DNA of 64,000 bases from Polyangiales bacterium (GTDB lineage Bacteria; Myxococcota_A; Polyangia; Polyangiales; Ga0077539): contig JBGARZ010000001.1 of the NCBI GenBank assembly GCA_044229975.1, forward strand, positions 928,001 to 992,000, written 5' to 3'. Shown here one piece after another: positions 2,916 through 18,203 of this stretch. Below the pieces are notes generated by a model, which saw only the letters and a list, made by a program, of their open reading frames with translations, had not been told where the DNA came from and did no database searches. Position 1 is the stretch's first letter. Every line of letters begins with the position of its first letter. Made by a program: the position numbers and the translations under genes.

Positions 2916-3023
2916 CATAGACTGTCCGCCGAAAATTCAGTGATCTGTTCAGTGCTGGTCAGAATCACACCGTTGCCAGCGACCCCACCAAAGGGGAAAG
3001 CAGTACGGAAGGGTAGAGACGCC

Positions 3024-3209
3024 ATGCACGACGACGATCAGGACGAGGGGCTCACCACGGCGGGGGCCCGCTACCTCATCAGCGACCGCGACCTCGACGC
3101 CCTCGCGGAGGCCGAGATGGCCTTCGCGCGTTGGGAGCAGACGCGCCGCTGGTGGCTCGTCGGCTGCCTCGACGACCGGGCCGCGCTCGACAAGGCCAAC
3201 AGCGCCTGA
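3024..3209 (+). CDS. Small acidic hypothetical protein (61 aa)
   Basis: ATG 3024 after a purine-rich stretch, GC3-biased codons; MHDDDQDEGLTTAGARYLISDRDLDALAEAEMAFARWEQTRRWWLVGCLDDRAALDKANSA. Confidence 0.5.
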   Translation: MHDDDQDEGLTTAGARYLISDRDLDALAEAEMAFARWEQTRRWWLVGCLDDRAALDKANSA

Positions 3210-3229
3210 CCGACGCGCAACCAACGCGC

Positions 3230-4087
3230 ATGGCCACCCGGTTGAAGGCTGGTGCTGTTCAGGCGCTGCTGCTCTCCCGTCAGCGGGAGCTGCTCCGAGA
3301 CGTGGCGCGCGAGGTCGGCGCGGAGGTGTTGTTCCTGAAGGCGGCGTGGGCAGACGCCGCGCTGTTTGGAGGGCGCGGCGATCGGGTGGGCAGCGACCTC
3401 GACGTGCTCGTCACCCCGGAGCGCTTCACCGACTACGCCAACGCGCTCGAAGCCCGCGGCTTCACCCGCTACGAGCCGGTCACCCACCGCGCGACCGTCA
3501 CCCTCGGCTCCAAGGAGTGGACCTACTCCCACCCCGGCGCGTGGATGCCCGTCGACCTGCACCGCGAGCTCGCCGAGCCGCCGTGGTTCACGTTCGATGT
3601 CGCAGCGGTGCTCTCGCGCGCCGTGGAGTGGCCCGCGGTGGGCGGCCCCATCCGCTCGCTGGGCCCTGAAGACCAGGTGCTCTACGCGGCGGTTCACTAC
3701 GCCAACCATCTCTACGAGATCGACGATCGACACGCGGGGGACATCGCCCGCCTGCTCACGTCGCACGCCGTGGACTGGTCGCTGATCTACCGCGAGGCCG
3801 ACCGCGGGGGCATGCGACTCATCGCGGAGGTCTTCGCCGAGCACCTGCGCGCACGCGGCCTCGACGTGCCCGCGCCGCCGTGGCCCGCGTCGGCGTTCAC
3901 ACGACTGCGACGCGACTGGGTCGGCCGCTGGGTCGACGTGGGCGCGACCTTCGCGCGGCGGAGTGCTGTGGGGAGGTACACCGGGCTGCTGTTGGAGCGC
4001 CCGGTGTTGAGTGATCGATGGGAGGCGCTGCCCCGTTGGGCGCTCAGGTACGCGGCCTTGCGTGCGCTCGACCGCGTCCTGCGCTGA
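3230..4087 (+). CDS. Nucleotidyltransferase family protein (NTP_transf_5-like)
   Basis: FLKAAW (LKG-like), RVGSDLDVLV, VDLH, PEDQVLYAAVH, DIARLL..VDW; start placed at ATG 3230. Confidence 0.85.
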   Translation: MATRLKAGAVQALLLSRQRELLRDVAREVGAEVLFLKAAWADAALFGGRGDRVGSDLDVLVTPERFTDYANALEARGFTRYEPVTHRATVTLGSKEWTYSHPGAWMPVDLHRELAEPPWFTFDVAAVLSRAVEWPAVGGPIRSLGPEDQVLYAAVHYANHLYEIDDRHAGDIARLLTSHAVDWSLIYREADRGGMRLIAEVFAEHLRARGLDVPAPPWPASAFTRLRRDWVGRWVDVGATFARRSAVGRYTGLLLERPVLSDRWEALPRWALRYAALRALDRVLR

Positions 4088-4101
4088 CCCTCCCGGGTCA
4101 G
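4084..4101. terminator. Short hairpin between convergent genes containing both stop codons
   Basis: CTGACCC-TCCC-GGGTCAG; TGA 4085-4087 (+) and TGA 4098-4100 (-) lie in the stem. Confidence 0.3.
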
Positions 4102-4265
4102 GTGTTGGCGAACCCGCCCTCTTCGTCACACGCGCCGGCGTTCTTCCCGCCGGAGCCCGTGTCACACGCGAGGCTATAGGTCTCCAGTGGAAGGTCTTCG
4201 ACGACGCGCGGTGCTTCGTACGGCAGGAGGGCGGAATGGTTGGGCATGGTGTTCTCGGGGGACAT
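4098..4265 (-). CDS. Putative RiPP precursor peptide (55 aa)
   Basis: GAGGAG SD 7 nt before ATG 4265; MSPENTMPNHSALLPYEAPRVVEDLPLETYSLACDTGSGGKNAGACDEEGGFANT; YxxPxV leader motif, two Cys in a Gly/acid-rich tail, last gene of a PqqD/rSAM gene run. Confidence 0.8.
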   Translation of the reverse strand: MSPENTMPNHSALLPYEAPRVVEDLPLETYSLACDTGSGGKNAGACDEEGGFANT

Positions 4266-4299
4266 GGAGTGACTCCTCATGGAAGGTTGAAGCGGCTGC

Positions 4300-7200
4300 T
4301 CACCGCACGATGAACAGCGCACCAGAAGCGGTCTGGGTGAAGGCCGCGTCGACGGCTCCGTCGCTGTCGATGTCGCCCACCCACGACGTGCTGGAGATCG
4401 TGGCGGCGCTGGTGCCTGTGGGCGACACCACGAAGCGATCGGCCGTGTCGGTGGTCTGCCCCGCCCAGGAAGCGCGGCCGCGGTATGCGTAGAAGCGTGC
4501 CGCGCTGTTGAGCTGATACGCGGCGCTGCCGAGGAGGAGGTCGGCCGAGGGGGCGCCGCTCAGCAGCAGCGAGGGGCGCACCTGCGTCGGGTCGGTGATG
4601 GAGGCGATGGAGCGACCGAAGATGTCGAGCAGGGCGCCAGCGGCCGTGGTGCGAACGCTCCCGCCCGCAGCGAGACCGCCGTCGGTGCCGCCGAAGTACA
4701 GGAACACCTCGCCCGCGCCGCCAGTGGTGCCGATGTTGCCCACGGCGAAGTCGCTACGACCATCGCCGTTGATGTCGCCGACACCCGCGACGACGTTCTG
4801 ACCGTTGGCCGCGGTCGAGCCGGTCACGCTGCCGGGCACCTGACCCGGGCGGGTGAAGGTCGCGTCGGTCGCGGTGAGCGAGAGCGGGGTCGCGAGCGAC
4901 CGGCCCGCGAACACATACGCCGCCGCCGGGGTGCCCGACGCGCCGCCGCCGATGGCGAGATCTTCGAGCAGGTCGTTGCCGACCAGGCGACCCGCGCCGG
5001 CGAGGGAGATGCCGAACACCGTCGCCGTGCCGCTGTTGCGGATGGTGAGGTCGGCACCGTTGGGGGAGAGCGTGGCGGGCCAGGTGCGGCGACCGCGGAA
5101 CAACACCACCGCGCCGCCGCCCGTCGCGATGGGCGCGGCGATGGCGACGTCGTTGAGGTTGTCGACGTCGCCATCGAAGTTGCCGACGCGAGCCAGCGTG
5201 GCGCCGAGGCGGGCCGGGGCGAAGTCGCCCGTGCCACCGCCGATGGTCACGTTGGCCTCGGACGCGAGGTAGGCCATCGCAGTGCCCGTGCGCCACATGG
5301 CGGCCGGGCGGCCGAAGAAGAGGTACACGCTGCCCGCGCGGGTGCCCGACGTCGGGCCCGGCTCGCCGATGGCGATGTCACCGACGCCGTCGCCGTTGAT
5401 GTCGCCGAGCGACGCGACCACGGTGCCGAAGCGACCGTCGGACACCGAGCCGCGGAACTCGGTGAAGTTGGTCTCGGAGAGCCCGGTCGCGGAGCCGAAG
5501 TAGATGCGCGCGAAGCCGCCGGCGCTCGTGCCCTGGGTGGACGAGGCCAGGAGCACGTCCGAGATGCCGTCGCCGTTGAGGTCGAACCCACCGGAGACGG
5601 CGTTGCCGAGCAACGGCGACGCCACGGTGATCTGATCGACCACCACGTCGGGCGTGAGCGGGCCGGCCGAGACCACCGTCGCGCTCGTGTTGCCCACTGC
5701 GTCGAAGGAGCGCATCGCGAAGTAGTAGGCCCGACCGAGCTGGAGGCCGTTGATGTCAGCGGTGTTCGCAGCGCCGGGGGTGCCCGGCGTGGCCGTGATG
5801 ACGGCGAGCGTGGCGCTGGAGAAGTTGGACGCGGTGATGGCGGCCGCGGAGTAGCGAACCTCGTAGCGGCCCACCGGGCGAGTGCCGGTGCCCGAGGGGT
5901 TGGCGTCGGAGCCGTCGTTCCAGGTGAGGCGGACGATGCCCGCGCGGCGCGCCGAGCGCGGGGTCGTCGGGATGGCAGCCACGAAGTCGGTCGGTGCCGT
6001 CGGGATGGCCGTGTCGACCACCACCGTGACCGATGCCGTGCCTACGCCGCGGCCCGTGACTTCGGCGGTGGTCGCCGTGAGGTTGACGGCGTCGCCCTGC
6101 GGGAGCGTGACGCCCGAGAAGGTCACCGTGCCGCCCGCAACGGTGCTCGTCACGGCGGTGCCGCCGTTGATGCGGAGGCTCACCACCGTGCCCGCCGGGG
6201 CGTCGGAGGTGAGCGTCACCGTGGTCGTCGCCGTGGTGAAGAGGGCGCCCGCGGTGGGGGCCGTAAACGCGAGCGTCGGGGGGTTGCCGACGGTGACGGT
6301 GCACATCCCGTTGGTGGTGCTCGCGTTGCCTGCCGGGTCGGTCGCCGCCAGCCGCAACGTGGTCACGCCCGGGAAGAACTGTAGATCGGAGAAGGTGCCC
6401 GTGCCGCCCGTCATGGTCGGCGCCGTCAGCGGAATCTGCCGCGGCATGTCGCCCATGCGTTCGAGCGTGAGGTTGATGGGATAGGCGTCGCTGCTCACGA
6501 TGACGGCGGCGCGCGCAGTGCCATCCGTGCCCGGCGCCACGATGCGGTTGCAGTTGAAGATGTTGAGCGTGGGGGCCGACGAGTCGACGTAGAGCACCGA
6601 GGCCACCGAGGCGCCGCGGTCGCCCGTGGTGTCGGTCACCTGCACGCGAATGGTCGGGCCGGTGGGCGCGGGAGAGGACGGGTCGGTGCGGGTCGGCGAG
6701 GTCTCCGGCAGCGTGACGTTGGCGAAGCGGGCGATGCCGACGAAGCCCATGCCCAGCGTCGCGCAGGGGTCACCCGCCATGGTCGGGGACACCGTCGCCG
6801 TCGCGATGGGGGCCGCCACCATGTCGCGGAGGAGCTCGGCGGTGCCCGACATGCGGTCGGTGCAGGCCACCACCTCGGCCTGGAGGCCCGGCGCCGTGGT
6901 GTCGCGGTCGCGCGCCGCGTTGAGGATGGTGCCAGGGTCGGCCGCGTCGTACGCGACCGGGGCCACGATGCGCACCGACGGCAGCGCCGACTGACAGCGC
7001 ACGTTGGCGATGGTGCTGCGAGCGACGTTGCCCGCCGCGTCCTGCGTCGAGACCTCGACGGTGAAGGGAGCGCCGCCATCGGGACAGGTGACCTGCACGC
7101 ACGCGTCGGTGGTGGCCGAGGCCGGGACGTCGGCGCAGCCCGCCGGGTCGGCCGGGGTCGAGCCCATCACGTTGGCGCACACCCGGCGCCCCGCCGCGTC

Positions 7201-8100
7201 GCTGCGCGCGCACACGTTGAACTGCACGCCCGCGACCGCGGTGTTGACGTCACCCGAGAGGCCGATGGTCGCGTTGGCCATCGGGCTCTGCACGGTGAGC
7301 GTGGGCGCCACCGAGTCGACGGTGAAGCGGCCCTCGGCCGAGCGGCCCACGTTGCCCGCGCGGTTGGTGCACGTCGCGCGCGCCACGAACTCTCCGTCGG
7401 GCGCGAGCGCCACGTTGTTGAAGCGAGCGACCCCGGCCATGACGGCGGCGCGCAAGGGCGTCGCGGTGCCCGTGATGGCGAGCTCGACCTCGCGGCCGTC
7501 CTCCACGTCGGTGCCGACGGTGAAGGTCGTCGCGAAGGGCATGCCCGCGGCGGCGGTGCTGTCGGTCAGGTTGAGCGTCGAGCGCATCGGCGTCGCGATG
7601 GAGCAGCGGGGCACCGCGCAGCTGACCGAGAGCGTGGTGCGACCGCACGGCGCGCTCTCCCCGGCGACGCGCACCTCCAGCGAGGACATCGCGCCGGTGT
7701 CGAACTGCACCGCCTCGAAGCGCACCGTGGGGCCGCTCACGGTGGCGGTGGCCACGCTGCGGGTGTTGACGAAGAGCTCGAGCCGGGTGCCCACGGCCGC
7801 GTTGGTCGCGAGCTGCACCGTGTACGCGAAGCCGTTGCTGCAGTTGTTGTCGGCGTCGTCGGCGACGCCCAGCACCGCCGCGGCGGTCGGGCGCACGAAC
7901 TCGATGGACGGACAGAGCGCGCCCGCATCGTTGCCCGCGTCGTTGCCCGCATCGTTGCCAACGTCGGTCCCGGTGTCGCCGCCCACGTCGCCACCGGCGT
8001 CACCCGCGTCGCCCGCAGGGGCAGGCGGGTCGTCGGAGCAGCCCACGGCTGCGGCGGCGAGAAACGGAAGCAGCAAGCCCAAACGGATGCGATGCGCCAT
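4300..8100 (-). CDS. Large surface lipoprotein with Ig-like repeats, FN3 domain and FG-GAP (integrin-alpha-like) beta-propeller
   Basis: Signal LLLPFLAAAAVG-C; D/A/G linker; repeated DxAGN Ig-strand motifs; LTW...YYFAMRSFDAVGN FN3; DLNGDG/DINGDG repeats with G.VYLFFG. Confidence 0.85.
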   Translation of the reverse strand: MAHRIRLGLLLPFLAAAAVGCSDDPPAPAGDAGDAGGDVGGDTGTDVGNDAGNDAGNDAGALCPSIEFVRPTAAAVLGVADDADNNCSNGFAYTVQLATNAAVGTRLELFVNTRSVATATVSGPTVRFEAVQFDTGAMSSLEVRVAGESAPCGRTTLSVSCAVPRCSIATPMRSTLNLTDSTAAAGMPFATTFTVGTDVEDGREVELAITGTATPLRAAVMAGVARFNNVALAPDGEFVARATCTNRAGNVGRSAEGRFTVDSVAPTLTVQSPMANATIGLSGDVNTAVAGVQFNVCARSDAAGRRVCANVMGSTPADPAGCADVPASATTDACVQVTCPDGGAPFTVEVSTQDAAGNVARSTIANVRCQSALPSVRIVAPVAYDAADPGTILNAARDRDTTAPGLQAEVVACTDRMSGTAELLRDMVAAPIATATVSPTMAGDPCATLGMGFVGIARFANVTLPETSPTRTDPSSPAPTGPTIRVQVTDTTGDRGASVASVLYVDSSAPTLNIFNCNRIVAPGTDGTARAAVIVSSDAYPINLTLERMGDMPRQIPLTAPTMTGGTGTFSDLQFFPGVTTLRLAATDPAGNASTTNGMCTVTVGNPPTLAFTAPTAGALFTTATTTVTLTSDAPAGTVVSLRINGGTAVTSTVAGGTVTFSGVTLPQGDAVNLTATTAEVTGRGVGTASVTVVVDTAIPTAPTDFVAAIPTTPRSARRAGIVRLTWNDGSDANPSGTGTRPVGRYEVRYSAAAITASNFSSATLAVITATPGTPGAANTADINGLQLGRAYYFAMRSFDAVGNTSATVVSAGPLTPDVVVDQITVASPLLGNAVSGGFDLNGDGISDVLLASSTQGTSAGGFARIYFGSATGLSETNFTEFRGSVSDGRFGTVVASLGDINGDGVGDIAIGEPGPTSGTRAGSVYLFFGRPAAMWRTGTAMAYLASEANVTIGGGTGDFAPARLGATLARVGNFDGDVDNLNDVAIAAPIATGGGAVVLFRGRRTWPATLSPNGADLTIRNSGTATVFGISLAGAGRLVGNDLLEDLAIGGGASGTPAAAYVFAGRSLATPLSLTATDATFTRPGQVPGSVTGSTAANGQNVVAGVGDINGDGRSDFAVGNIGTTGGAGEVFLYFGGTDGGLAAGGSVRTTAAGALLDIFGRSIASITDPTQVRPSLLLSGAPSADLLLGSAAYQLNSAARFYAYRGRASWAGQTTDTADRFVVSPTGTSAATISSTSWVGDIDSDGAVDAAFTQTASGALFIVR
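7921..7956. repeat. 12-nt coding tandem repeat x3 (NDAG linker)
   Basis: GCCCGC(A/G)TCGTT three times. Confidence 0.7.
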
Positions 8101-8153
8101 GGTGGATCCCCGTCAGAATGGAAGGTTCGAAGCGTGTGAGGTCGCGGGTTCTA

Positions 8154-9446
8154 TCACACCCGGTCGCTCGCCGGTGTGCTGCATGGTTCAGAGGGTGACG
8201 CGTGTAAAGGTGCGCCGTCTCGCCGTCGCCGGAGGGTCACGAGCTCTCCGCCGTCGGCTTTGTTCCCGTGCGCCGGACGGAGCCACTCGAACCTCCGCGC
8301 GAGGGCCTCGTCACCCGGGCTACGCACGTCGCGCTCGGGTCGGATGACCCCGCTCGCCACGATGGAAAACGGGCCCACCGCCGGATCGCGGTCGGGGCCG
8401 CAGTCCGCCGACGGCGGGAGCACATCCAGGCCGCCGGCCGCCGCGGCATACCGAGCGCGAGCGCGGGCGCAGGCCGAGGCGTAGGGCCCCAGGTAGTCGC
8501 CGCCCTCGTGGAGCGCCGTCGCGTGGCAGCGCTGACAGGCCGGAAGCAGGTCGCAGTCCCGACAGCCGTGAATCCGCGACCAGGTCAAGCCCTCGAACAG
8601 CGCCCGCTCGGGCGCCGCATCGAGCGCCGCGGAGAGGGACTCGCGCGTGAGGTCGGCGAGGATGGATGGGGTATCTGTGCACGCTTGCAGCCGCCCGTCG
8701 GGCAGCACGACGAGGCCCGAGCGGCCGACCCCGCACGGATACTTCGCGAGCTTCTCGGCGCGCGCCGCTTCGGCATCGGCGGGCGGCGACCAGGGTTGGA
8801 GCAAGCCCTCGCGCAGCAGGTCTTCCGGGGTGACCCGAACGGCCCATGGGTCGTCCGCGCCGTCTTCGCGCATCGTGAGGTCGGTCGAGGGGTGATGCTC
8901 GCAGCCGAGCCGCAGGGCGAGGGCCTCGACGGAGCGTGTCCCCTTGAGCGAGAGCGTGGTGGCGGGCGTCTTGAGCACCACCCGCACACCGCGCTCGCGG
9001 AGGGCCGAGATGGCGCCCGCCGTGCGAACGAAGGAGCCCGGAACGCGGGTGACGGCGTCGTGCTCGGCCGCCTCTCCCGAGTAGAGGCTGATGTGGACTT
9101 CGAGCAGGCCGATGAGCGCCAGCGCGTCGGCGTAGGCCGCGTCGATGAGGAACCCATTGGTGAAGAGCCGCACCGCGAATCCACGGCCGCGCGCGTGGCG
9201 CAGGATGTCGAGCAGGTCGGGCCGCAGCGTCGCCTCGCCGCCGCTCACGTTGAGCGTGAACACCCCTGCGTCAGCGATGCCGTCGATGACTCCGCGGAGC
9301 TCGTCGAGGGACAGCTCGCCCTTCTCGCCCTGCACCTGGTAGCAGTGCTGGCAGGCGTGGTTGCAGCGGTCGGCCACCTGGAGGTGAACGCCCATGGGCC
9401 GCCCCTGCCGCGTGGCGAGCGAGCGCAGGAGGTCGGAGCCCTTCAC
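8154..9446 (-). CDS. Radical SAM/SPASM peptide maturase
   Basis: CNHACQHC, SGGEA, FTNG, ISLY; SPASM cysteines CGVG...DGRLQAC and CRDCDLLPACQRC...C; GTG start overlaps PqqD stop (GTGA). Confidence 0.92.
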   Translation of the reverse strand: MKGSDLLRSLATRQGRPMGVHLQVADRCNHACQHCYQVQGEKGELSLDELRGVIDGIADAGVFTLNVSGGEATLRPDLLDILRHARGRGFAVRLFTNGFLIDAAYADALALIGLLEVHISLYSGEAAEHDAVTRVPGSFVRTAGAISALRERGVRVVLKTPATTLSLKGTRSVEALALRLGCEHHPSTDLTMREDGADDPWAVRVTPEDLLREGLLQPWSPPADAEAARAEKLAKYPCGVGRSGLVVLPDGRLQACTDTPSILADLTRESLSAALDAAPERALFEGLTWSRIHGCRDCDLLPACQRCHATALHEGGDYLGPYASACARARARYAAAAGGLDVLPPSADCGPDRDPAVGPFSIVASGVIRPERDVRSPGDEALARRFEWLRPAHGNKADGGELVTLRRRRDGAPLHASPSEPCSTPASDRV

Positions 9447-9724
9447 GGGGCCTCCACCGCGGGGCGCAGGAGGCCGCGGGCCACGAGGTCGTCGAGGAAG
9501 GCCACCACGTCGGCGTTGGCGGTGGCCTCGTCGACCGCGAAGCGCTCGCGCACGGCGGCCACGAGCTGGTCGATGGTGGCGCCGTCGCAGCGCTCCCAGA
9601 GGAAGCTCCCGACGGCGTTGAAGAGGCGCACCCGGCTGGTGTCGAGGGAGATCACCGCCACCTGGTCGTCGTAGCGTCGCCAGACCGCATCGCGTGCGTG
9701 GTGGACGGTTCGTTGGGCGTTCAT
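9443..9724 (-). CDS. PqqD family RiPP recognition element (RRE)
   Basis: 93 aa; FNAVGSFLWERCDG.TIDQLV...RFAVDEATANADVVAFLDDLVARGLL. Confidence 0.93.
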   Translation of the reverse strand: MNAQRTVHHARDAVWRRYDDQVAVISLDTSRVRLFNAVGSFLWERCDGATIDQLVAAVRERFAVDEATANADVVAFLDDLVARGLLRPAVEAP

Positions 9725-10482
9725 GGCGGTGAGGTCGTCGGGTGGAGGGCGGTGTCGAGGGCCGCAAGATAGCCCGGCCCCCAGGGCAAGCCTAGCGTCA
9801 AAGCCCGCACGCGGCCGCCCAACGAGAGGGCGACGCCCGCCCGGACTCGTGCGTGGGGGTCCTCTCCCCGGGGGCGCGTCACATGAGACATCAGGCGCAT
9901 CGTTGCCGTAGAGCCCGGCATCCATTCAACCGTGGCCAGGGAATGGCGATGGACGAAGGCCAGGGCCACGAGCGGCGAGCGATCGGGCGCCTCCAGCTCG
10001 GGCGCGGCCTCGCGGTTGAACGGCATCGCGCGCACCCTCATCGACGAAGGCCCGTCGCCCCCTTCGACGAGCACCGAGTTGGACGCGAAGGCCCGCTCGC
10101 CCGCCGCGCGCACGGCGGTGGTCTTGCCCACCCCGGGTGCGGCGATCAGCAGCGCGACCCCGCCCTCGACCCGCACCGCCCCGGCGTGCAGGAGGAAGCA
10201 CCCGTGGAGGGGCGCGTCGCGCGCGACCAGCTCGCACACCGCGGCCAGCCACGGTGCGTGCCGGGCGGGGTCATCGATGATGGTGAGCTGATCGTGGTCA
10301 GGGTGCGCGGTGAGCGCGAAGCCGACCTCGGCATCGGTGGGGAGCGTGGGCGCCAACGAGACCGTCACGCGGCGCGCATCGACCGGTGGGTCGCAGAGCC
10401 ACGGTCGCAGAAGCGGATGGGGCGGCGGCCCTTCGAGGGCGAGCGCAACGGGACCGAAGCGCAAGCCGTAGGCAGCGCTCAC
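9721..10482 (-). CDS. HprK-related P-loop kinase-like protein 2 (Asp-Asp motif lost)
   Basis: FLLHAGAV...LLIAAPGVGKTT; ASNSVLV where SDD is expected; GTG start overlaps previous stop. Confidence 0.75.
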   Translation of the reverse strand: MSAAYGLRFGPVALALEGPPPHPLLRPWLCDPPVDARRVTVSLAPTLPTDAEVGFALTAHPDHDQLTIIDDPARHAPWLAAVCELVARDAPLHGCFLLHAGAVRVEGGVALLIAAPGVGKTTAVRAAGERAFASNSVLVEGGDGPSSMRVRAMPFNREAAPELEAPDRSPLVALAFVHRHSLATVEWMPGSTATMRLMSHVTRPRGEDPHARVRAGVALSLGGRVRALTLGLPWGPGYLAALDTALHPTTSPP

Positions 10483-11318
10483 GCGAGCCAGCGGTCGAGC
10501 AGCGGCAGCACCGGCGCCTCGCGCGGCAGGGCCAGCGTCACACACGGAACGGCGCCGACGAGGTGATGCGCGTGGTCGAGCAGCGACGCGGCCGCGGGGT
10601 CGCCCTGCGCGAACCACACCATCGACTGGAGCGCGTCGGCGAAGGCGGCCGACGGGGAGCACGCGCCGACCGCGAGCGTGTCGGCCTTGCGGAGAAACAC
10701 CAGCGCCCGCAGACGCGCCCGACGCGGGACCGTGGGTCGTCGCCACTCGCCGACGAAGGGCAGCGAGAGGGCGTCCCACCCATCGGCCGTGCGACGGATG
10801 GCGACGAGGTCGTCGGACAGAACGTGGGCCTCGGGGAGCTTGCGCGCGGTGGTGGTCTTGCCGCCGCCCGAGCGGGCGATGAAGAGCACCGCCCCGCGCT
10901 CGTCGGCGTAGCCGCAGGCGTGGACCATCGCTCCCTGGCGGGACGGGAGCTCGGTCGCAAGCTGGAGGCGCAGGGGCGTGTCGATGGGCGTGACGTCGTC
11001 CATGGGGACGTCGGTGTGGACGGTCGGACGCACGAGCGCTGTCGCGCGATGTCGACCCAGATGGACACGCGTCTCGCCGTCGGGTCGGAGGAAGCGCAGC
11101 GCGCCGTCGGGCTCGCGCCGCACGTCGACCCCCGGGAAGCGGTTGAGCACCGGCTCCGGCAGCGACCACGCGGGGTCGACGGTGATGTCGAGGTGCAGGT
11201 CGGGCGCCGCGCCGTCGTCGAGCGCGACGTAGCGACCGAAGCGCAGGTCGGCGTGACCCTCGTGGATGGGCCCGGTGGTGGCGACGGCGACGCGCAGCCC
11301 GGCGATGTCGAGGATCAC
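10479..11318 (-). CDS. HprK-related P-loop kinase 1
   Basis: MVHACG, LFIARSGGGKTT (Walker A), LSDDLVAI, LPFVGE. Confidence 0.85.
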   Translation of the reverse strand: MILDIAGLRVAVATTGPIHEGHADLRFGRYVALDDGAAPDLHLDITVDPAWSLPEPVLNRFPGVDVRREPDGALRFLRPDGETRVHLGRHRATALVRPTVHTDVPMDDVTPIDTPLRLQLATELPSRQGAMVHACGYADERGAVLFIARSGGGKTTTARKLPEAHVLSDDLVAIRRTADGWDALSLPFVGEWRRPTVPRRARLRALVFLRKADTLAVGACSPSAAFADALQSMVWFAQGDPAAASLLDHAHHLVGAVPCVTLALPREAPVLPLLDRWLA

Positions 11319-11710
11319 GCGAACACCCCACGCAGCGCAGCGAGCGCGACACGACCGAGGGCCCGCAGCTCACGACGACGCGGCCACCGAAGCGAGAGCG
11401 GTCGTTGCTCGACCACGGCCGCGCGACCGAGCACGTCGCCCCAGGACACGGCACCGTCATCGCGCGACAGGGCATCACCGCGGCAGGTCGGCCCCGCGGG
11501 CCCCAGGGAGGCGACCCGATGCACCACGAGGGCGCCTCCGCGGGAGTAGGCGATGACCTCGCCGACGCGGACGGCGCGCGGGTCGCACGGGGTCACCAGC
11601 ACGCTCGCCCCGTCGCGGACGGTCGGCCACATGCTCGCGCCGCGAACGACCCAACGGGTGGGGCGGCCTTCGCGGAGAGAGTCGACGATCACGCGTTCGG
11701 CGAGGCCCAT
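11315..11710 (-). CDS. S24/S26 family peptidase (soluble, Ser/His type)
   Basis: VRGASMWPTVRDG, GEVIAY, LVVHRV, RGDA...DVLGR; no TM anchor; ATG 11710. Confidence 0.85.
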   Translation of the reverse strand: MGLAERVIVDSLREGRPTRWVVRGASMWPTVRDGASVLVTPCDPRAVRVGEVIAYSRGGALVVHRVASLGPAGPTCRGDALSRDDGAVSWGDVLGRAAVVEQRPLSLRWPRRRELRALGRVALAALRGVFA

Positions 11711-11748
11711 CGTTGGTGCCGCTACGTTGCCAGCCTGAGGCCCGCGGT

Positions 11749-12633
11749 TCAACGCCAGTGACGGCAGACGGGCTTGAAGACACACGCCGTGCAGTCACCA
11801 GCGACGGGCTTGTCGGGGCACGGGCCGTCGATGCCCTTGTGGCAGAGCGTGAAGTCGTACTGCACCGGGTCGTCGGGGTTGAGGCGACGGAGGCTCGCGG
11901 TGATCTCCAGGGCGGTGCGCCACGAGGCGTCGGTGCGCGTCGTGAGCCCGAGGTTGTGCGCGATGCGCCCGATGTGAACGTCGACCGGGATGATGAGCGC
12001 CGACGCCGGGATCACCTCCGTGAGCCCAAGGTCGACCCCGGAGCGTCGAACCACCCAGCGCAGAAACAGCATGAGGCGTTTCGACGCGCTCGACCCGACG
12101 GGGTCGGGCAGGAGGTGCTTCTGGGTGCGGTCGGGTCCGTTGGGCCACGCGATGGCGCGCAGCGAAGCGACCCACTGCCCGAGGGCCGCACTCAGGTCGG
12201 GGCGGGATGACTCCCAGGCGCGTTCGAGAGGGGCGAGCACCCTGCCCTCGGCGCGGTACTGCTGCCCGATCGCGACGAGCAGGTCGGCGATGTCGGCGCC
12301 GCGAAAGGTGCGGTGCACGAAGCCCGCGAGGCGCGCTCGCAGCTCGTCCCGAGACGCTCCCGCAACGACCGCGATGGGCGACCGACTCGTCGATACGGTG
12401 AGCAGCGTGAGCAGCTCTTCGAGCTTGTCGATGATGGTGTCGACGCGGCCGAAGGCCATCAGCGCCGAGAGCAGCGCGACCAGCGCCCGATCGTCAGGGT
12501 CAGCGTAGCGGTGCGGGAACTTCAGCGGGTCGCGGTCGAGCGCCCGCTGGTGATCGAAGCTCCGGTGGTGCTCTCCGACGGCGCGCAACACGTCGTCCAT
12601 CGGAGCGGGCTTGCGAGCACGGGCCCTGGCCAT
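11749..12633 (-). CDS. TIGR02757/DUF2400 family protein (HhH-GPD-like, C-terminal Cys cluster)
   Basis: DPLKFPHRY, AFGRV, SASKRLMLFLRWVVR, VDLG, IPVDVH, DPVQYDFTLCH, C-terminal Cys cluster. Confidence 0.85.
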   Translation of the reverse strand: MARARARKPAPMDDVLRAVGEHHRSFDHQRALDRDPLKFPHRYADPDDRALVALLSALMAFGRVDTIIDKLEELLTLLTVSTSRSPIAVVAGASRDELRARLAGFVHRTFRGADIADLLVAIGQQYRAEGRVLAPLERAWESSRPDLSAALGQWVASLRAIAWPNGPDRTQKHLLPDPVGSSASKRLMLFLRWVVRRSGVDLGLTEVIPASALIIPVDVHIGRIAHNLGLTTRTDASWRTALEITASLRRLNPDDPVQYDFTLCHKGIDGPCPDKPVAGDCTACVFKPVCRHWR

Positions 12634-12699: not shown

Positions 12700-14025
12700 G
12701 TGTCCCGCGCCGTGTCGAGAGCGAAGCTGGCCGCGTGGATGCTGACGACGTGGGCGCTGACGACGTCGGCGCTGCAAGGCACAGCGTGGGCCCTCGACCC
12801 GCTCGCCAAGGGCCCGTGGTTGATGGACCTCCGCACCGACAGCGTCGTGGTGATGGCCGAGCGGCGGAGCACCGGGAGGCTGGCGGTGACGGCGGTTCCG
12901 CAGGGGCCTGGTGGCGACCTCGCGACGGGGTCGGTGACGGCGCGCGCCGGGGTCGATGCGCTGCTCCATGAGCTCACCCTCTCGGGGCTTCAGCCTGGCA
13001 CCCGCTACCGCTACGAGGTGTCGGCCCCCGACGTCGAGCCCGTCGGCGGGACCTTCGGCACCGCGCCGACGACCCCAGGGCCCTTTCGCTTCATCATCTA
13101 CGGCGACACGCGCAGCCACGCTCGGCCGCACGCCGCGGTGGTCGACGCCATCCGGCGCGAGGCCGGGGAGTTCGCGGTGCACACCGGCGACCTCGTCGAG
13201 GACGGTCGCGACGAGGACGACTGGCAACGCTTCTTCGACATCGAAGCACCGCTGTTGCGATCAACGCCCTTCGTCCCTGTGATCGGCAACCACGAGATCG
13301 CGGTGCAGTTCTCCAGCGGCATCGACAACTACCGCCGCTACGTCCACGTCGCGCCGGGCGGGCCGAGCGCCGAGCTCGACTCGGTGTTTCGCTACGGCAA
13401 CACCCGCTTCGTGCTGGCCAACTCGTACGACGACTGGTCGGGCGCCGCGCGCGACTGGCTCGACCGGGAGCTCTCGCGCGCCCGCAGTGAAGGGCCCGAC
13501 GACTGGCTCTTCGTCGTCATGCACTGGGGCGCCCGCTCGTCGGGTCCTCACGGCGACAACCGCCTCGTCGAGCGCGCGGGCGTCGACACCATCCTGCGGC
13601 GCCACCGGGTCGACCTGCTCATCTCCGGGCACGACCACGCCTACGAGCGCGGTGACGATCGGGGGCTGCGCTTCATGGTGAGCGGCGGCGGCGGCGCGCC
13701 TCTCTACGAGCGCGAACAGGTGCGGGCGATGACCCGGGTGTTTGCGTCCGAGCACCACTACGTGCGCGCCGAGGTCGAGCGCGAGCGCATCGTCTTCACC
13801 ACGCTGCGTCCCGACGGCACCGCCCTCGACCGGGCCACCCTCCACCACGGCGGGTGGACCGACATGAACGCCGTCGAGCCTGAGCAACCGAGGCCGCGAC
13901 CGCCCGCAGCCCCGCCCGAACCACCGACGCCGCCCGAAGACTGGACCTGGCTCTGGAAGGTCGTCCCGGCGCTCGCGGCGGTCGGAGGCGGCGCGTGGTG
14001 GCTGCGCCGACGTTCGCGAGGCTGA
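12700..14025 (+). CDS. Secreted purple-acid-phosphatase-like metallophosphoesterase with FN3 domain and C-terminal membrane anchor
   Basis: [40 protein letters not shown]; Pro-rich linker, TM, RRR; start approximate. Confidence 0.85.
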
Positions 14026-17869: not shown

Positions 17870-18006
17870 AGGGGCAGCGCTTGTATCCCCATCGGCGCTC
17901 CGACTCAAAGGTCGCTCGCGACGCATTCCCGCAATCGACGGTTGCCAACGCCCGCGCGATCGGGTTAGGACGCCGTCCGTCCGAGGGAGAGATCCTGAAG
18001 ATCACA

Positions 18007-18089
18007 TGGCCCGGCTGACCGATGGCTCGTGAACCCCGCCAGGTCGGAAACGAAGCAACGGTAGCGTAGATCGCGGTGCAGCCGGGCCA
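18007..18089 (+). ncRNA. ffs: Signal recognition particle RNA (conserved S-domain core)
   Basis: Helix 8 signature GAACC.CGCCAGG-TCG-GAAA-CGA-AGCAACGG closed by TGGCCCGGCTG/CAGCCGGGCCA; intergenic location. Confidence 0.9.
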
Positions 18090-18203
18090 CCCTCTCCTTC
18101 CAGCCGTCTCAGTCCCTCCACCCGGGACGACGGAGAAGGGAGACGGCCCGTGGCGGCAAGTCCGCCGTCCCCAACGACCTCAGCTCGTGCACAATGCGCG
18201 CGC

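Follow-up and report, generated by a model that had tools for sequence, protein, structure and literature searches.

Architecture of the locus

The stretch analysed here, referred to throughout as the window, comprises 64,000 nucleotides of a Polyangiales bacterium (assembly GCA_044229975.1, contig JBGARZ010000001.1) with a G+C content of about 72%, and holds between positions 3230 and 11710 an eight-gene locus built around a gene for a 55-residue peptide. Five minus-strand genes, encoding a peptidase, two kinase-like proteins, a PqqD-family protein and a radical S-adenosylmethionine (rSAM) enzyme, are joined by four 4-nucleotide overlaps (GTGA 11315-11318, GTGA 10479-10482, ATGA 9721-9724 and GTGA 9443-9446). 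The first encodes a 131-residue homologue of S26-like signal peptidases of the endoplasmic reticulum/archaeal type (11315-11710, its length counted from M26 of the longest open reading frame (ORF)), and it is followed by two P-loop proteins with the HprK/PEPCK fold, recognised by fold and motif: kinA (10479-11318), which has an intact H...GGKTTT...LSDD set, and its paralog kinB (9721-10482), which lacks the acidic pair. The fourth gene encodes a 93-residue PqqD-family recognition element (RRE) for peptides made on the ribosome and modified after translation (RiPPs) (9443-9724; PF05402, E 2.3e-18) and the fifth a 430-residue rSAM/SPASM enzyme (8154-9446; PF04055, E 5e-18).

After a gap of 53 nucleotides the same strand continues with a gene for a 1266-residue lipoprotein (4300-8100) that has a lipobox ending in AAVGC and, by Pfam, Big_13 immunoglobulin (Ig)-like domains and a C-terminal FG-GAP region. 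The precursor peptide MSPENTMPNHSALLPYEAPRVVEDLPLETYSLACDTGSGGKNAGACDEEGGFANT, with a predicted leader of residues 1-29 and a predicted core of residues 30-55, is encoded 34 nucleotides past the lipoprotein stop codon (4098-4265, minus strand), behind a GAGGAG Shine-Dalgarno motif. Converging on it from the plus strand is a PF14907 (NTP_transf_5) nucleotidyltransferase gene (3230-4087; Pfam E 5.8e-25), whose start at M34 of the ORF agrees with relatives. An inverted repeat, TGACCC/GGGTCA at 4085-4100, holds the stop codons of both convergent genes and, on inspection of the sequence, has no T-run; a scan of 3000-12600 found no promoter-like sites and three terminator-like sites against 1.6 expected. 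An initial annotation, made from the letters of the sequence, had described these eight genes, the four overlaps, a strong Shine-Dalgarno motif and the convergent nucleotidyltransferase; all were recovered at the same positions, and the identities it had assigned hold by family matches or predicted folds.

A conserved short peptide

Comparison of 34 unique family peptides, drawn from 13 loci, 23 database clusters and the window, revealed a shared pattern. YxxPx[VIL], L[AP]LE[TSA][YFM]SL[AT]C and a Lys between two Cys are present in all 34, the C-terminal residue is Thr in 22 and Ser in the other 12, and 32 contain two Cys and no more. Between the Cys, the length of the loop ranges from 6 to 17 residues; E28 did not vary among 20 peptides compared. 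The YxxP..ETxxLAC peptide that the initial annotation had singled out is thus conserved throughout the family, and the observation it had named as counting against a RiPP system, the absence of a conserved short peptide near homologous loci, did not occur, with the peptide found in 15 of the 15 related loci that reach far enough.

The codons used at invariant residues vary (AGC and TCG for Ser, four codons each for Pro and Leu), and pairwise comparison over a 19-codon block gave 498 synonymous and 318 non-synonymous codon differences. Such synonymous variation at invariant residues indicates, at the level of sequence, that the 55-residue ORF is a real gene that is translated and under selection. 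A motif resembling a Shine-Dalgarno sequence precedes the peptide gene in all 13 relatives. A search of sequencing runs listed four DNA runs, with small shares, and none of RNA.

The peptide extends well beyond this family. A profile of 20 peptides matched 197 proteins at E <= 0.01 in a word-indexed protein collection; among the 120 matches listed, 119 end in Ser or Thr and 118 have exactly two Cys, the sources being Polyangiales, Kofleriaceae and other myxobacterial metagenome-assembled genomes. HMMER, run exhaustively over 1.84 billion representatives, returned 635 clusters at E <= 1e-3, these being clusters at 50% identity from a library that carries no taxonomy. The best 150 of the 635 include 148 short peptides, of which 138 end in Ser or Thr, 132 have two Cys and all 148 contain [Y/W]xxP. 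As judged from these profile matches, the cassette is part of a large peptide superfamily of at least 635 clusters at 50% identity and not a one-off. Database copies of the peptide are all labelled 'hypothetical protein' and carry no Pfam domain. One 714-residue protein from the representative search (P0290) has a superfamily peptide as its last 53 residues, which could be a true fusion to the upstream gene or a read-through annotation.

Conservation and distribution of the gene block

Of 24 further genomes from the same family, 17 had a match to kinB; the order's 16 other families, sampled by 16 genomes, had none. We mapped the eight window proteins by tblastn onto the 17 related stretches, each up to 20 kb long. 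All 17 loci share one order of the genes for kinA, kinB, PqqD, rSAM and lipoprotein. The S26-like peptidase gene is present in 15, the two misses (L016 and L018) both beginning at a contig edge, and the peptide gene is likewise present in 15, with L015 and L019 ending inside the lipoprotein gene. Directly after the peptide gene comes the nucleotidyltransferase gene in 12 of the 15 loci that extend to it (ten by tblastn, L025 and L022 by Pfam); neither tblastn nor Pfam found it at that position in L020 or L024, and L017 has a fragment only. Co-occurrence of the components with the peptide, the check that the initial annotation had suggested, is largely borne out, the block from peptidase to peptide being syntenic in 17 of 17 related loci when contig ends are allowed for. 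The locus is a real, conserved system and more than a chance arrangement.

The genes that flank the block (saccharopine dehydrogenase, DUF218, DUF2400 and metallophosphatase) are common only within the genus and partly in one other genus, and the conserved unit therefore runs from peptidase to peptide, usually with the transferase added. Peptide and cassette each occur once in the source genome. A second S26-like ORF in that genome (G000:C34:75841-76257, locus L080; E 7e-12, with one in-frame TAG) was considered as a second cassette and rejected, as kinase, rSAM, PqqD and peptide genes are all absent nearby. A search of 185,579 species genomes yielded 19 loci, all in metagenome-assembled genomes labelled Myxococcales, Polyangiales, Myxococcaceae or Deltaproteobacteria.

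Properties of the encoded enzymes

A point of reference for several of these enzymes is provided by the linear polyphosphorylated peptide (LPP) clusters of Bacillota, which, according to the available portion of the report on them, comprise LppA, LppB (an RRE), LppK (an HprK-like kinase), LppS (an archaeal-type SpI peptidase), LppN (an NTP transferase) and LppD (an MsbA-like pump) (Popov et al., Nat Commun 2026, PMC13381572). The profile of the window RRE, compared with the PDB, matched the lasso-peptide protein TbiB1 best (E 2e-10), followed by LppB (9x8z_B, E 5.8e-9), with true PqqD at E 0.7; the entry 9x8z is given as LppB-LppA in the data-availability section of the same report (PMC13381572).

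The rSAM enzyme keeps the CX3CX2C motif in 15 of 15 sequences, and in its SPASM region C256, C295, C298, C304, C307, C326 and C349 are found in all 15 and C238 in 14 of them, a set that we infer from the alignment to bind two auxiliary clusters. The match to the SPASM family itself is weak (E 1.3e-3), and no NCBIfam model matched the enzyme above its cut-off, the best being GeoRSP_rSAM with 96.5 bits against a cut-off of 400. Curated NCBIfam cut-offs were reached by none of the eight window proteins and by none of 21 proteins from more distant loci.

In the S26-like peptidase, G24, S26, M27, P29, H64, R65, G78 and D79 are invariant and D85 is near-invariant across 16 sequences. Its profile matched, in the PDB, SEC11C (E 7e-8) and SEC11A (2.7e-7) ahead of the bacterial SpsB (2.3e-6), and its family matches were Peptidase_S24 (2e-3), NCBIfam sigpep_I_arch (2.2e-9, below cut-off) and a weak sod_Ni_protease (2.3e-4). 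No hydrophobic segment was seen by eye in the protein, which is therefore probably cytoplasmic and soluble, to judge from its sequence. A search of 5.8 billion proteins with the S26 profile, limited by its word index, found 43 proteins labelled hypothetical or 'signal peptidase I', none of them recognisably LppS.

Neither kinA nor kinB has a significant sequence-family match in Pfam or NCBIfam, and their sequence profiles returned P-loop noise only from the PDB, with HprK not among the matches. We assigned them by structure, using AlphaFold2 models of high confidence (pLDDT, the predicted local distance difference test, of 90.4 for kinA and 91.3 for kinB). The kinA model matched PEPCK at Z 13.7 over 240 residues and four HprK/P structures at Z 9.4-9.8 over residues 128-279, the next unrelated match being at Z 5.0; the kinB model matched PEPCK at Z 12.8 and HprK/P at Z 9.9-10.5. 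For both proteins the PEPCK alignments, at Z 12.7-13.7 across the pair, span the whole length and the HprK/P alignments cover the C-terminal domain (117-127 residues). With kinA as query, the top 50 Foldseek matches were all PEPCK, without HprK, which was recovered by a wide VIA search. The two proteins are paralogs (hhalign probability 99.3%). The His, GGKTTT and LSDD of kinA are invariant, which we take to be the HprK active-site pattern; in kinB, H99 and GxGKT are invariant and FAS-N aligns where kinA has LSDD. The kinB sequences form a long-branched clan with support 100/99.

A proposed maturation pathway

We propose, with a probability of about 70%, that the locus is a conserved operon whose product, a 55-residue peptide made on the ribosome, is matured by LPP-like machinery together with an added rSAM/SPASM enzyme. 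In this pathway the PqqD-type RRE would bind the leader through Y16-x-x-P19-x-V21, and the rSAM/SPASM enzyme would form thioether cross-links of the sactionine or ranthionine type through C34 and C46. Because it keeps the HprK-type His, P-loop and Asp-Asp, kinA is the likely kinase, its best candidate target being the hydroxyl of the invariant C-terminal Thr or Ser (T55 in the window) and its second candidate S31. Having lost the Asp-Asp pair, kinB is likely to be a non-catalytic or altered partner. The PF14907 transferase would then add a group to the phosphate. For comparison, LppK adds one to four phosphates to Ser3 of the core, and LppN was without effect in a heterologous host (PMC13381572).

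Leader removal would fall to the S26-like peptidase through its Ser, His and Asp residues. LppS, with the catalytic residues S29, H68 and D93, requires the RRE, cuts after F-3 E-2 T-1 and acts poorly on unphosphorylated peptide (PMC13381572). By analogy with it, an S26-type enzyme is a plausible leader peptidase here and would be expected to cut after L27-E28-T29, freeing a 26-residue core, YSLAC...ANT. Cleavage after S-L-A, as the classical -3/-1 rule would have it, was demoted, given the large -3 residue at the LppS site (PMC13381572) and the invariance of E28. Finally, the position of the peptide gene directly after that of the giant Ig/FG-GAP lipoprotein suggests that the product and this surface protein act together.

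Several observations weigh against this proposal. The kinases are recognised by fold only and sequence profiles miss HprK; the NCBIfam models of named rSAM-peptide systems all score below their cut-offs; and the distance from the leader Tyr to the Glu-Thr is two residues shorter than in LPP peptides. The phosphorylation site of LPP lies near the core N terminus, not the C terminus (PMC13381572), which makes the site here ambiguous, and the peptides of three more distant loci do not all end in Ser or Thr. The nucleotidyltransferase, not found in 2 of 15 loci (L020 and L024), may be dispensable. No exporter was found in the conserved block, and a product made in the cytoplasm would therefore have no obvious route to a lipoprotein outside it.

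Pairing of the peptide gene with a giant lipoprotein gene

The lipoprotein is strongly conserved, at a mean column identity of 63%: the lipobox residues G20 and C21 are the same in all 13 sequences, Cys is invariant at many positions, and so are Asp and Gly at many places in the FG-GAP region; an ESM Atlas search with it returned generic FG-GAP clusters only, at scores up to 0.84. In 12 of 13 family loci the peptide gene starts 18-41 nucleotides past the lipoprotein stop codon. Beyond the family, when 401 genomes of the phylum were searched with a kinA profile, 103 gave a match at E <= 1e-5, and 18 of these distant loci (L059-L076; stretches up to 20 kb) were examined. They contain rSAM in 15 of 18, PqqD in 15, an S26-like gene in 11 and PF14907 in 4, as well as related short ORFs with the pattern PYExPxV...[F/L]E.[L/M][A/S]L.C...C...S. 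Their single kinases mostly keep D[DE] and match ScmC at 1e-9 to 4.5e-11, below its cut-off.

Immediately upstream of the candidate peptide, 14 of the 18 distant loci have a giant ORF of 876-2884 residues. Of 16 giant ORFs tested by Pfam, these 14 all carry Big_13 and/or FG-GAP domains, and the remaining two are a B12-rSAM protein and a glycosyltransferase. The distant loci have two operon layouts, PqqD-giant-peptide-kinase-rSAM-S26 peptidase (type A, to which the three loci with variable peptide termini belong) and kinase-PqqD-rSAM-giant-peptide (type B, the order of the window), and the pairing of giant and peptide genes is kept in both. The initial annotation had rightly listed the lipoprotein as a component; it had missed this gene pair, conserved across the phylum. 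In L059, L060 and L068 the order is PqqD-giant-peptide-kinase and no rSAM match was found within the stretch; these may be rSAM-free, LPP-like versions that keep the giant protein. One distant cassette has a B12-binding radical SAM gene beside the kinase gene (L062:7141-9381) and another a GT4 glycosyltransferase gene (L065:4513-6690), which suggests further tailoring variants.

The same pairing bears on what the pathway is for. It is possible, if on balance improbable, that it serves to supply the giant FG-GAP lipoprotein with a partner of its own, such as a ligand, cofactor or anchor, rather than to produce a free natural product of the antibiotic-like kind. The short distance between the two genes in the family, the persistence of the Big_13/FG-GAP ORF directly upstream in 14 of 18 distant loci despite two gene orders, and a conserved block in which neither an exporter nor an immunity gene was found would all fit such a role. 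There are analogies as well: QhpC, once cross-linked by an rSAM enzyme, forms a subunit of a periplasmic dehydrogenase, and pyrroloquinoline quinone serves periplasmic beta-propeller enzymes. On the other side, the argument is one from gene adjacency, the peptide has no signal peptide and no visible export route, and the core varies in length and sequence, unlike a cofactor precursor. The stricter version, in which a cross-linked phosphopeptide is the obligate small partner of the giant Ig/FG-GAP surface protein (ligand, cofactor or phospho-linked anchor) and never a free product, is a little more doubtful again. If true, it would place RiPP machinery in a new functional category and mean that a RiPP and its protein partner have been kept as a pair across Myxococcota, in two operon layouts.

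A different question is what the rSAM enzyme does. It might carry out other chemistry, such as an MftC-like reaction at the C-terminal residue, an epimerisation or a C-C cross-link, with the Cys pair serving as a disulfide or metal site once the leader is removed. The top NCBIfam matches of the enzyme include MftC (83.9 bits), PqqE, NirJ-type and StsB models, all far below their cut-offs, and the invariance of the C-terminal Ser or Thr could serve an rSAM reaction rather than the kinase; in nickel superoxide dismutase, an S26-type maturation protease exposes an N-terminal metal-binding motif. We consider this unlikely, as the window family combines two invariant Cys with a full set of SPASM Cys, the usual signature of thioether-forming maturases, and the kinases already account for the conserved terminal hydroxyl. 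Least credible by far is that the enzymes modify the giant lipoprotein itself and the short ORF is a regulator or non-substrate: SPASM rSAM enzymes can cross-link whole Cys-rich proteins, according to the available part of one report (PMC13692751), and the lipoprotein is rich in invariant Cys, but its Sec/lipobox signal would take it out of the cytoplasm unfolded, and it is the peptide that is kept under coding selection and bears the YxxPxV...[F/L]ET leader of the kind bound by LPP and lasso RREs and cut by an SpI-like peptidase.

Neighbouring genes and variant loci

Just upstream of the peptidase gene lie a DUF2400 gene (11749-12540, minus strand) and a gene for a calcineurin-like metallophosphatase (about 12700-14025, plus strand). 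Genus g1 keeps this pair beside the cassette, as do two genus g7 loci (L026 and L027), and the other genera do not; that a phosphatase neighbours a cassette with kinases may be fortuitous. Farther along the window is a bacterial small signal recognition particle RNA (18004-18095, plus strand; Rfam RF00169, 51.2 bits); no tRNA genes were found in the 64-kb window. Among the related loci, L020, from the single genus that lacks the nucleotidyltransferase gene behind the peptide gene, has a response regulator and histidine kinase pair in its place (L020:16194-18749). In L017 (genome G002), the kinA, kinB, rSAM and lipoprotein genes are split across frames, as could result from assembly error or from decay of the copy.

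Comparison with known systems

The SynChlorMet (ScmC/D/E/F), GeoRSP and HPr-rel-A cassettes presumably combine a PqqD-like protein, an rSAM/SPASM enzyme and an HprK-related protein, as the window does. They are defined only by NCBIfam/TIGRFAM models (TIGR04248-04251, TIGR04302/04303 and TIGR04352/04353/04355, respectively), and the window proteins fall far short of the curated cut-offs of all three. For SynChlorMet, the matches were ScmD at 1.4e-9 (38 bits against a cut-off of 100), ScmE at 54 bits against 400 and ScmF at 50 against 400, and ScmC matched neither kinA nor kinB. For GeoRSP, geo_PqqD matched at 1.5e-10 (41 bits against 100) and GeoRSP_rSAM at 2.2e-27 (96.5 against 400), and for HPr-rel-A, HprK_rel_A matched kinB at 1e-3 (18 bits against 200) and PqqD_rel_X scored 18.5 against 35.

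The locus resembles sactipeptide and ranthipeptide pathways in having an rSAM enzyme that carries the complete complement of SPASM Cys, an RRE and a core with invariant Cys and nearby Asp or Glu, and the StsB, AlbA and SkfB models are among its weak matches, none of them at cut-off. It differs in that its RRE is a separate protein of the lasso/LPP type rather than a fused one, and in its kinases, nucleotidyltransferase, S26 peptidase and giant lipoprotein, all foreign to those pathways.

Phosphorylated lasso peptides are closer in their tailoring. As the available portion of one review describes, the C-terminal Ser of lasso precursors is phosphorylated by homologues of HPr kinase, and the phosphate receives hexoses from a nucleotidyltransferase (PMC8498205), which agrees with the analogy to paeninodin (PadeK) and pseudomycoidin drawn in the initial annotation. 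The window shares with them a YxxP leader for a B1-type RRE, TbiB1 being the best PDB match of its own RRE (E 2e-10). It differs in the presence of an rSAM enzyme and in leader removal, predicted here to be by an S26-like peptidase. The macrolactam cyclase (C, Asn-synthase-like) and the transglutaminase-like B2 protease of lasso clusters had no Pfam or NCBIfam match in the eight genes or in 11 flanking ORFs, consistent with the earlier description of a non-lasso RiPP cluster.

The nearest relatives are the LPP clusters, and four of the five LPP enzyme types, together with the general leader logic, are common to the window. Its RRE is discrete and its profile matches LppB; its peptidase is a soluble S26B-like enzyme of the Ser/His/Asp type, with S26, H64 and D79 invariant and D85 near-invariant; its kinase has the HprK fold, LppK having been compared by description only; and its transferase is of the PF14907 type, a membership that we assume for LppN from the wording of the paper. 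The LPP leader motif is YxxPxVLxHQxIxFETxxS (PMC13381572). The window leader has YxxPxV and a hydrophobic residue, Glu and Thr ahead of the predicted cut, in the family [L/F]-E-[T/S/A]; H-Q is absent from it, as it is from all 148 representative superfamily peptides, and the spacing is shorter by two residues. A profile of the peptide found no matches in the PDB, the LppA leader chain included.

The window adds the rSAM/SPASM enzyme, inside the operon in 17 of 17 loci, and two invariant Cys, and from this combination its product is probably not linear. It also has the second kinase paralog without an Asp-Asp pair, an invariant C-terminal Ser or Thr across the window family, the giant Ig/FG-GAP lipoprotein gene built into the operon, and a host in Myxococcota rather than Bacillota. 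Where LPP clusters have an MsbA-like pump, the conserved block has no exporter: none was found among the eight genes or the scanned flanks of the window, and among the related loci only L025 has an adjoining ABC_tran ORF. In its gene content, then, the locus is a radical-SAM variant of the LPP family. Of the initial annotation's 'new RiPP system', the RiPP reading stands and the claim of novelty is weakened, since peptidase, RRE, kinase, PF14907 transferase and, in part, leader match the LPP set; the S26 enzyme it proposed as leader protease is similarly plausible and no longer new, LppS having been characterised already (PMC13381572).

The terms 'radical SAM', 'rSAM', 'SPASM' and 'Myxococc' have no occurrences in the available text of the LPP report, which describes the family as restricted to Bacillota, its end product and role as unknown, and its functional link as capsule loci only (PMC13381572). 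A literature search for the present gene combination, mostly of titles and abstract openings, found no description of an rSAM-containing version. LPP peptides have been known only since 2026, from Bacillota only and as linear products only; here, in another phylum, the LPP module for recognition, trimming and phosphorylation stands together with a predicted radical-SAM cross-linker. The near-universal C-terminal Ser or Thr and the two Cys give clear predictions that can be tested by mass spectrometry. Closed genomes of one or two contigs hold several of the distant variants (G078, G357 and G087), and genetics would be feasible if these are cultured strains. Moreover, the strict pairing with a giant surface protein, absent from the Bacillota systems, provides a handle on function.

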